A stretch of 39,591 nucleotides of DNA. Source: Candidatus Woesearchaeota archaeon. Its GTDB lineage: Archaea; Nanobdellota; Nanobdellia; SCGC-AAA011-G17; ARS1403. Every line of letters begins with the position of its first letter. Within the stretch, counting starts at the first letter, position 1. Position numbers and translations under genes: made by a program. Positions 1 to 4,110 of this stretch are shown here, piece after piece. Below the pieces are notes generated by a model that worked only from the letters and a program-made list of their open reading frames with translations, made no database searches and had not been told where the DNA came from. The stretch spans positions 1-39,591 of the forward strand of contig CAYJRS010000002.1 of assembly GCA_964372845.1 (NCBI GenBank), given 5' to 3'.

Positions 1-32
1 GAAATGGTTGAGCATTTCCATTTTACTGGAGC

Positions 33-55
33 CAACCAGGCAGACATTCTCGCGA
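33..55 (+). repeat. 23-nt direct copy (22/23) of the central part of the downstream tRNA gene (141-163)
   Basis: CAACCAGgCAGACATTCTCGCGA at 33-55 versus CAACCAGaCAGACATTCTCGCGA at 141-163. Similarity stops abruptly on both sides. Confidence 0.8.
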
Positions 56-76
56 TAATTATCTAGAATAAAGGTA

Positions 77-84
77 ATATATAA
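77..84 (+). promoter_or_regulatory. TATA-like box upstream of the tRNA gene
   Basis: ATATATAA lies about 18-25 nt upstream of the first acceptor-stem base (102), which fits archaeal promoter spacing. Confidence 0.35.
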
Positions 85-101
85 TACTTTCGTTCAGTAA
101 A

Positions 102-212
102 GCCGGGGTGGTGGAGTTTGGTTTAACACACCTTGGTTCTCAACCAGACAGACATTCTCGCGAGTGTCTCACGAGTTCGAATTGGTTTACCACGAGAATC
201 TCGTCCCCGGCG
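102..212 (+). tRNA. Intron-containing tRNA, tentative anticodon CUC (Glu); isotype uncertain
   Basis: Acceptor stem GCCGGGG 102-108 / CCCCGGC 205-211, discriminator G212, no encoded CCA. D arm GTG/CAC with GG in the loop. The 7-nt loop TTCTCAA (137-143) sits on stem TTGG/CCAG. T arm ACGAG 171-175 / CTCGT 200-204 is split by 17 nt that fold as hBHBh': helix TTCG 176-179 : CGAG 193-196, AAT bulges at 180-182 and 197-199, inner hairpin TGG-TTTA-CCA. Excision restores the T-loop TTCGAAT. An extra perfect 8-bp hairpin occupies 150-169. Confidence 0.75.
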
Positions 213-219
213 CTGAAAC

Positions 220-260
220 GCGGGTTCGAAATGTTTCTCACGGAAATCCCACATTTAGAA
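220..260 (+). other. tRNA-like T-arm / 3' fragment carrying the same BHB-type insertion; no 5' half found
   Basis: GCGGG-TTCG-[AAA]-TG-TTTCT-CA-CGGA-[AAT]-CCCAC. TTCG pairs with CGGA over 4 bp (one GU), flanked by two 3-nt bulges. The outer helix has one C.A mismatch. The AT-rich segment ATTTAGA follows where an acceptor strand would lie. Confidence 0.4.
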
Positions 261-302
261 TTATTAAATGGAACTATATAAAACTTATGTTGTGATTTCA
301 AA

Positions 303-3933: not shown

Positions 3934-4110
3934 TGATGAACAGCACCTATAAGTTCCCATGCATGAGCACAGTACAGTTATAGGCGTTGCCCTGCTTAAC
4001 TCCCTCGTAATCATCTGGAAGACGATTAATCCGAGATCGAACTTCCCGAAATTTCCCGAAGAAAATTTTCTACGAGATCGGGTGGAACCAGGGCACTATG
4101 GCCGTCCATC
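3934..4110 (-). rRNA. 5S rRNA with a 63-nt insertion replacing the helix III tip / loop C
   Basis: On the minus strand, helix I pairs GATGGACGGC with GCTGTTCATC (10 bp, 2 GU). Helix II pairs GCCCTG with CAGGGC. Also present: GGGAGTTAAGC, GTACTG, CATGGGAAC, and helix CCTATAA/TTATAGG. About 176 nt versus about 120 nt normally. GC is well above the surroundings. Confidence 0.7.

Follow-up and report, generated by a model that had tools for sequence, protein, structure and literature searches.

Introns that occupy non-canonical positions and form hBHBh' motifs, in which the fold known as bulge-helix-bulge (BHB), with two 3-nt bulges placed 4 bp apart, is bounded by flanking helices, are known from the tRNA genes of Thermoproteales, ARMAN and other DPANN archaea. 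For DPANN genomes, Pace- and Woesearchaeota being among those analyzed, both alpha4-type EndA splicing endonucleases with an extra loop and a marked rise in disrupted tRNAs have been reported (PMC5829648). The present study concerns a tRNA locus located at the very beginning (positions 1–262) of a 39,591-nt stretch of DNA, hereafter referred to as the window, which constitutes the start of contig CAYJRS010000002.1 (C2) of a groundwater archaeon of the DPANN group (Candidatus Woesearchaeota; assembly GCA_964372845.1, designated G000; a metagenome-assembled genome of 811 kb, 34% GC, in 70 contigs). We consider it likely that positions 102–212 represent a genuine intron-bearing class II tRNA gene, belonging to an accessory family of Woesearchaeales and lying between scarred, recombining flanks. 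The tRNA-related features described below are all on the + strand.

With respect to its intron, the gene shows no essential difference from the archaeal introns mentioned above: besides the motif itself, the restoration of a canonical T-loop, the presence of an endonuclease gene and the occurrence of several disrupted tRNAs in one genome are shared, while the intron site is common to the whole family and to ordinary tRNA-Leu and tRNA-Ser genes of relatives. The intron is a further case of a known archaeal kind; what is new is the combination of features found in the family, namely a drifting anticodon, a leader/trailer helix, a partial self-copy and a position directly preceding an open reading frame (ORF).

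By analogy, the closest precedent for a family with a varying anticodon is that of the bacterial allo-tRNAs (Mukai et al. 2017, PMC5389517), which have serine-type bodies, carry anticodons for 35 codons, frequently contain stem defects and have toxin-antitoxin neighbors. Both groups combine a serine-type body possessing a long variable arm with diverse non-serine anticodons and with stem defects, both occur beside toxin-antitoxin-like or other accessory genes, and in both the use of all members in translation is doubtful. However, the defining trait of the allo-tRNAs, which are bacterial, is an 8/4 or 9/3 acceptor/T branch, whereas the family described here is archaeal and has a 7/5 branch; unlike allo-tRNAs, it also contains the T-loop intron, the leader/trailer helix and the upstream partial copy.

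Two further systems resemble parts of the locus. In Caldiarchaeum subterraneum, a sense-oriented 5' fragment of tRNA-Thr is found as a direct repeat upstream of the intact tRNA-Thr-II gene in a heterogeneous population (Sugahara et al. 2012, PMC3293823). There, fragment and gene are separated by 1.8 kb containing a recombinase gene, whereas here the spacer is ~50 nt, no recombinase is encoded nearby and the arrangement is kept across genera. The BHB intron in the 5' untranslated region of the HVO_1309 mRNA of Haloferax volcanii (PMC7714728), like rRNA processing stems, provides an example of a structured RNA bracketed by a flank helix with a 3-nt bulge and, in the case of HVO_1309, placed upstream of a coding region. 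At the present locus a clean bulge is found on the 5' side only, a whole tRNA is enclosed by the helix and cleavage is hypothetical.

Structure of the tRNA gene and its family

The pre-tRNA gene (102–212; 111 nt, 94 nt once spliced) was delimited using ARAGORN on the spliced form, covariance and pair counts. It comprises an acceptor stem of 7 bp (102–108/205–211) followed by G212, corresponding to position 73 (the discriminator base), a D stem of 3 bp (111–113/127–129), an anticodon stem of 4 bp (133–136/144–147) beneath which C132.A148 is mismatched, an anticodon loop TTCTCAA (137–143) with the anticodon CTC at 139–141, a variable-arm hairpin (150–157/162–169) of seven Watson-Crick pairs plus one G.U with a TCGC loop, and a T stem (171–175/200–204) interrupted by a 17-nt insert. 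The fold of 102–212 has a z value of −4.0 compared with shuffled sequences.

Neither ARAGORN nor the Rfam tRNA model (at the gathering threshold and at E≤10) made a call on the unspliced sequence. When the 17 nt were deleted in silico, ARAGORN called a class II tRNA(ctc) of 94 nt with a 7/5 acceptor/T branch, and eleven homologs were likewise called only after removal of the intron. The silence of these programs on the raw sequence is thus a consequence of the intron and does not speak against the presence of a tRNA.

The insert forms a strict hBHBh' motif. The intron was placed at 183–199, its ends being ambiguous within a duplicated AAT (180–196 to 183–199). The central helix (176–179/193–196) is composed of U.G, U-A, C-G and G-C pairs and separates two AAT bulges (180–182 and 197–199) located on opposite strands, while positions 183–192 form the inner hairpin TGG-TTTA-CCA (inner helix 183–185/190–192); excision restores TTCGAAT. 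Across 18 homologs the central helix is 97% paired, and the pair at position 57 is G:C in nine sequences and A:U in six. The same intron site occurs in ordinary tRNA-Leu(UAA) and tRNA-Ser(GCU) genes of relatives (L023, L027). Since the BHB helix covaries and the site recurs in these ordinary tRNAs, the T-loop intron is, as far as sequence comparison indicates, real and typical of the lineage. Many other tRNAs of this genome also carry introns, including T-loop ones (C59).

The type of splicing endonuclease, which a preliminary description of this DNA had proposed to identify, was determined as alpha4-like: a single EndA gene, encoding 191 aa, is present on C41 (1031–1606; PF01974 match, 105 bits). 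It adjoins the gene for RNase Z, and RNase P RNA is also encoded in the genome. By extension from established archaeal tRNA splicing, EndA would cut at both AAU bulges and a ligase would join the halves to yield the 94-nt tRNA. A search of RNA runs revealed none that contained the locus, and no trace of it was found in the small metatranscriptomes of a study on a relative. It was also observed that 182–193, in the intron region (TTGGTTTACCAC), is identical at 11 of 12 positions to the D-loop region of the same gene at 118–129 (TTGGTTTAACAC); this likeness may be a hint of the origin of the intron, or may be due to chance.

Most of the preliminary description agrees with these results. It had proposed a tRNA at 102–212 with a 7-bp acceptor stem, class-II-like in its 3-bp D stem and G73, about 94 nt long after splicing, with the anticodon CUC in a TTCTCAA loop on a stem of four pairs, and a T arm split by 17 nt at a non-canonical intron position, folding into a canonical hBHBh' motif whose excision recreates TTCGAAT; all helices and bulges were found where it had placed them. 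One point requires correction, as the 8-bp hairpin, which had been taken for an extra insertion, is the normal long variable arm, kept in all homologs. In the covariance-model check also envisaged there, the gene scored 129 bits with the family model described below, while the Rfam tRNA model made no call on the unspliced sequence.

Homologs were identified by BLAST of 95–265 against 41 relatives, and a covariance model (R1) built from six homologs was then searched over 151 genomes of the order. R1 scores this gene at the above 129 bits and gave at least 63 bits in 11 further genomes: G003 (two), G006, G007 (two), G012, G036, G049, G051 (two), G089, G094, G124 and G136. The score in G001 was 54 bits, and ordinary tRNA-Ser and tRNA-Leu genes scored lower than the high-scoring members. 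Two loci (L052 and L054) were added by a pattern scan. The family counts no fewer than 17 loci, spread over about 16 genomes of Woesearchaeales; the relatives with homologous loci are Candidatus Woesearchaeota or Nanoarchaeota from groundwater. The family is specific to Woesearchaeales and is accessory. In one relative (locus L014, G007:C31, 1501–1950), two family tRNAs with anticodons GAA and CAA were observed in tandem, ~320 nt apart, each with its own upstream copy.

In an 18-sequence alignment, 92.5% of the cells are paired and 28 of the 38 pairs change on both sides; none of 500 shuffles reached the observed pairing and no slid register came near it. Every stem is at least 85% paired across the family, with many compensatory changes. 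The long variable arm and G73 are present in every member. Isolated stem defects were found in G003 (an acceptor A.C), in G006 and G007a (anticodon-stem mismatches) and in L052 (six acceptor 5' nt before TGG).

The conserved structure extends beyond the mature tRNA. The gene is preceded by an A/T-rich spacer (56–98) containing a TATA-like box at about 75–85 and a leader, TTTCGTTCAGT (88–98), that is kept across the family. The end of the leader, CAGT (95–98), pairs with G212-C213-T214-G215, and an AAA bulge (99–101) abuts G1; the trailer, CTGAAACG (213–220), is complementary to the leader, as indicated by both its sequence and family covariation. Throughout the family, four leader nucleotides pair with G73 and three trailer nucleotides (87.5% of cells paired), the covarying combinations including CAGT/GCTG, TTGC/GCAA, TAGC/GCTA, CTGC/GCAG and GTGT/GCAC, and a 3-nt bulge, mostly AAA, occurs immediately 5' of G1.

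A simple family-specific model recovers T-loop-intron tRNAs that standard finders miss. Since such tRNAs are missed in DPANN genomes, the published tRNA sets for these lineages are incomplete.

A probable serine-type body and a drifting anticodon

The tRNA body appears, from its sequence, to be of the serine type. It has G73, its acceptor sequence GCCRRGG is also that of tRNA-Ser in relatives, and the variable arm is followed by a 1-nt linker. A serine anticodon (NGA or GCU) was not found in this gene, which carries CUC, or in its homologs, which carry GAU, GAA, GAG, CAA or UAA. The family thus has six non-serine anticodons, while no member has lost U33 or the purine at position 37.

The anticodon differs even between genes occupying the same position. 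At one syntenic site, beside a gene encoding a winged helix-turn-helix (wHTH) protein, it is CUC in this genome, GAU in G003, GAA in G001, G006 and G007, CAA in G036 and UAA in G058; in L052, where the same site is indicated by shared intergenic sequence and the presence of the small downstream ORF1, it is GAG. Serine-type bodies are combined with an anticodon that drifts between codons for Ile, Phe, Leu and Glu, and does so even from one ortholog to the next. Because the anticodon varies among syntenic orthologs, we infer that the tRNA is dispensable for normal decoding. A conventional tRNA-Glu(CUC) is encoded in the same genome (C29:5543–5617), as is an ordinary tRNA-Ile(GAU). The preliminary description had named a conventional tRNA-Glu(CUC) elsewhere in the genome, coupled with no expression from this locus, as the mark of a pseudogene; the first of these two elements was found.

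Archaeal seryl-tRNA synthetase recognizes the long arm and G73, not the anticodon. For this reason, the tRNA is probably charged with serine, as judged from these general identity rules. The spliced tRNA would then act as a missense serine tRNA; alternatively, it would serve mainly as a folded processing element heading the downstream transcript. If it is charged, the family would constitute a case of natural missense decoding in archaea and a possible archaeal counterpart of the allo-tRNAs. If it is uncharged, a tRNA fold would have been recruited as a processing or leader element for the adjoining genes.

Partial copies and rearrangement of the locus

The locus contains a direct repeat, copy 1 (33–55) being identical at 22 of 23 positions to copy 2 (141–163), which lies within the tRNA and consists of the 3' side of the anticodon stem, the 5' strand of the variable arm and its loop. 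By our own estimate, a 22/23 direct repeat within 262 nt is expected by chance at about 1e-7. The upstream copy also includes a degenerate copy of the anticodon arm (27–39), CTGG-AGCCAA-CCAG with a 6-nt loop, whose equivalents in relatives likewise have loops that are not anticodon-like (TTAAAAA, CTAA, GAAA, besides AGCCAA here), and a 5' hairpin-like remnant, AAATGG..CCATTT (1–24), corresponding to D-arm-derived hairpins of relatives (GGTGG..CCACC, GGCC..GGCC; compared in G003:C3, G012, L052 and G058). Sensitive BLAST of 1–262 against the window and the genome revealed no distal copy of any part of the tRNA, and an upstream copy of this sort is unique to this tRNA within the genome.

A partial sense copy taken from the gene's own anticodon arm and from the 5' strand and loop of its variable arm is found upstream in 16 of 17 loci (assessed partly by eye), in some of which it also takes in the D arm or the acceptor strand. 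The start-to-start spacing of copy and tRNA is 104–112 nt, with most values near 106 nt, except for four loci in which it is 100, 134, 156 or 170 nt, and identity is in every case lost within the loop of the variable arm or shortly into its 3' strand. The variable arms differ strongly among loci, yet each copy matches its own tRNA. Because this holds even for the otherwise orthologous G006 and G007a, sequence comparison points to co-evolution of the copy and the tRNA segment, through either gene conversion or selection that favors base pairing to the 3' strand common to both.

The flanking repeat at 22/23 identity had been noted in the preliminary description, which looked for the partner of the repeat upstream of the window; the partner is instead located inside it, at 141–163. 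Of the att-like flanks suggested there, the derivation from tRNA and the link with recombination stand, but a one-off att scar does not agree with a copy at 16 of 17 family loci. The choice it had offered, between a multi-insertion tRNA and a locus scarred by recombination, falls away, as the two alternatives are not exclusive and both hold.

A second T-arm-like unit without a 5' half, which the preliminary description had rightly pointed out as having the same BHB-type insertion, is located directly downstream of the gene. This relic (217–250) lacks an acceptor strand; the T-arm-like unit within it (222–250) has GGG/CCC and TTCG/CGGA helices, AAA and AAT bulges and an inner TG..CA. Its identity to the T arms of orthologs is 85% for G003:C3 and 82% for both G007a and G058, compared with 68% for the T arm of the neighboring gene. 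With ACGAG/CTCGT, the T arm now in place is similar to the one in G006. On the upstream side, the 1–24 hairpin resembles that of G003:C3, whereas 27–55 matches the present tRNA. On the simplest reading of these similarities, the downstream unit would be a remnant of an earlier resident tRNA: the current cassette would have replaced most of an older one, leaving the old outer ends on both sides.

Recombination between the repeats at 33–55 and 141–163 would remove 108 bp, a segment comprising the spacer, the leader and the 5' half of the tRNA. A corresponding deletion allele was indicated by the contigs of a metagenome, run X3 (Logan contigs built from 31-mers). One contig ends at 55 (depth 32.5), one spans 26–178 (depth 22.5) and one starts at 149 (depth 28.8), while a 45-nt contig of depth 9 aligns from its eighth base to 141–178 with one mismatch. 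The junction of 26–55 with 164–178 predicts exactly such a 45-nt unitig, whereas a simple single-nucleotide polymorphism would give 61 nt and a broken 26–178 contig. It was estimated that ~30% of the genomes in X3 (9 of 31.5 depth) lack the 108 bp between the repeats. Only the full form was seen in three other runs. In G058, an equivalent 5'-truncated form is the sole assembled form at the orthologous site. The break of the k=55 assembly at 1–55 results from this deletion heterogeneity, so that heterogeneity within the population accounts for the end of the contig. A conserved, still-recombining partial copy is a rare case of tRNA-gene rearrangement observable within a natural population.

Several observations weigh against the interpretation of 102–212 as a genuine tRNA gene between recombining flanks. 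The pairing counts are somewhat inflated, as alignment A2 was fitted to a model from six family members. The overall identity to tRNA-Ser is only slightly above that to tRNA-Leu. The TATA-like box ends 16–18 nt before G1, compared with ~24 nt in ordinary tRNAs of the same genome, and the trailer strand of the family mostly has a 1-nt bulge or a small internal loop, amounting to half a BHB motif only. The deletion allele was deduced from contig geometry, and no such allele was found for the G006 locus in four other metagenomes. Splicing, the RNA ends and charging are all inferred. Finally, the anticodon stem of this gene has four pairs including one G.U, together with the C.A mismatch and one extra nucleotide compared with its homologs, and this particular gene may therefore be decaying.

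The last point leads to the alternative that this copy is a decaying pseudogene, once functional but no longer expressed or charged, which is being lost by deletion between the repeats. The weakened anticodon stem, the loss of the 5' half in some 30% of the population and the existence of a conventional tRNA-Glu(CUC) are consistent with such a fate, and single stem defects are found in G003, G006, G007a and L052 as well. However, the acceptor stem, the T arm, the BHB motif, the variable arm, U33 with purine 37 and the leader/trailer helix are all intact, and family stems that are at least 85% paired with compensatory changes indicate selection on the fold. We regard decay of this copy as somewhat unlikely.

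It is unlikely that the fragments are att-type scars, left by a mobile element that carried a promoter and the 5' part of the tRNA and recombined within the variable arm. The identity tract indeed ends sharply in the variable-arm loop at every locus, presence/absence polymorphism affects the exact segment between the repeats, L058 and L060 have no tRNA at this site (see below), and the 5' fragment of tRNA-Thr in C. subterraneum offers a precedent (PMC3293823). However, a mere 108 bp, with no gene and no integrase-bearing insert, lie between the repeats; no recombinase domain was found in ten ORFs of the first 5.2 kb of the window or in the wHTH and DUF2203 genes just upstream, and no distal copy of a tRNA part turned up in the window or genome. 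Moreover, several GTDB families share the architecture and spacing, and the copy evolves in step with the tRNA it accompanies (G006 versus G007a), which would not be the behavior of a single old scar.

Alternatively, the upstream copy might be a functional RNA element, co-transcribed from the ORF1 promoter, whose variable-arm 5' strand competes with that of the tRNA for the 3' strand of the variable arm and thereby controls folding or processing of a tRNA-mRNA precursor. The copy retains hairpins, with a compensatory D-stem change in G124, and its differences in G007a and G012 turn a G.U into a G-C pair with the shared 3' strand; it lies downstream of a conserved promoter region common to the empty sites, and an ORF starts within 10–50 nt of the tRNA in most loci examined. 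On the other hand, differences in the copies of G136 and G094 break a pair, beyond the 23-nt core no significant similarity is present in the window, and gene conversion acting on direct repeats this close together is an equally good explanation of the co-evolution. Regulation of this kind is, in our judgment, quite improbable.

Trans-joining of the fragments of a split or permuted tRNA, as might be imagined from tRNA fragments on both sides and the abundance of BHB motifs in the genome, is hardly credible, since all parts of the gene are present in collinear order, the upstream fragment has no acceptor strand and runs in the same sense as the 5' half, and no complementary partner was found anywhere in the assembly.

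Returning to the interpretation of a genuine gene in a recombining setting, a broader and distinctly speculative proposal may be formulated, to which we assign a low probability. The family would consist of serine-type cassettes with an anticodon at liberty to vary, inserted ahead of the start codons of accessory genes and behind their promoters; excision of the tRNA from the mRNA leader would take place through the leader/trailer bulge-helix ("tRNA as intron"), and the half-copy would act as an on/off switch for a potentially mistranslating tRNA, either at the RNA level (strand competition) or at the DNA level (excision of the 108 bp).

Several other candidate explanations of the upstream copy were rejected. 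A tandem duplication of a unit consisting of the promoter and the 5' half was discarded on account of the lack of significant similarity outside the 23-nt core in the window (z of about 1.5), although other loci do keep D-arm or acceptor similarity in the upstream copy. A diversity-generating retroelement was dismissed, as the differences between copy and tRNA are not confined to adenines, and a C/D-box guide RNA, suggested by CUGAUGA loops, was dismissed, as the copy is sense, not antisense, and no D box is present. An apparent 39-nt "copy" of tRNA-Ile in C38 proved to be a scaffold-gap artifact. At that place (C38:2101–2330), an N gap has one and the same 55-nt sequence at its flanks, and the last base of the anticodon loop of tRNA-Ile(GAU) marks the exact end of this sequence; the break in the assembly possibly reflects heterogeneity in intron presence/absence in the population.

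Genomic neighborhood

Positions 1–55 of the window recur as the last 55 nt of contig C31 read in reverse complement, and synteny with G003:C3 confirmed that this contig is the true upstream neighbor. The genes located there encode RNR, ThyA, a MiaB-like protein, a DUF2203 protein and the divergent wHTH protein, and no 5' half of a tRNA was found on the C31 side. The wHTH protein (147 aa; C31:161–601 in G000) has a weakly PurA-like C-terminal region. In all seven tested genomes that have the wHTH gene and were compared here (G000, G001, G003, G006, G007, G036 and G058), the tRNA lies directly beside the wHTH gene and is divergent from it.

The wHTH protein is 76–87% identical across families, compared with 32–42% for RNR between the same genomes. 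Horizontal transfer of a mobile module composed of wHTH gene and tRNA was considered and dropped, because about 300 clusters of wHTH proteins all show 73–90% identity; this is simply a very conserved Woesearchaeal protein. No relatives of it encoded by viral contigs were found.

Downstream of the tRNA, ORF1 (303–515, + strand; 70 aa) is a conserved partner of the divergent wHTH gene, and in some relatives it follows the shared promoter region directly, without a tRNA. Within the family a same-strand ORF starts 10–90 nt after the tRNA, the distance being 10–50 nt in most loci examined, and in several there is no room for a promoter between the two. At the empty sites L058 and L060, the conserved promoter region is likewise common to the wHTH gene and the ORF1 homolog, but the interval between the two genes contains no tRNA. 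Since the empty sites keep both promoter region and ORF1, the tRNA cassette is located between the promoter region and the start of ORF1.

In L058, from a marine relative, a tRNA-like sequence (1150–1230, − strand), GCCCGTG...TTGGGTTCGATTCCCAA...CACGGGC, was observed right after the stop codon of the ORF1 homolog. In the window, ORF1 begins a small-ORF island (303–2374) that includes an AbrB/DUF1905-like ORF, two ORFs of the zinc-ribbon type, a HipA/PI3-4K-like kinase and, in convergent orientation, a NIF phosphatase. Both of these enzymes, along with two small ORFs of the island, are missing from G003, and the content of the island therefore varies within the genus. Further downstream (3935–4109, − strand), a match to 5S rRNA (48 bits) contains an insertion of roughly 66 nt in the helix III/loop C region.

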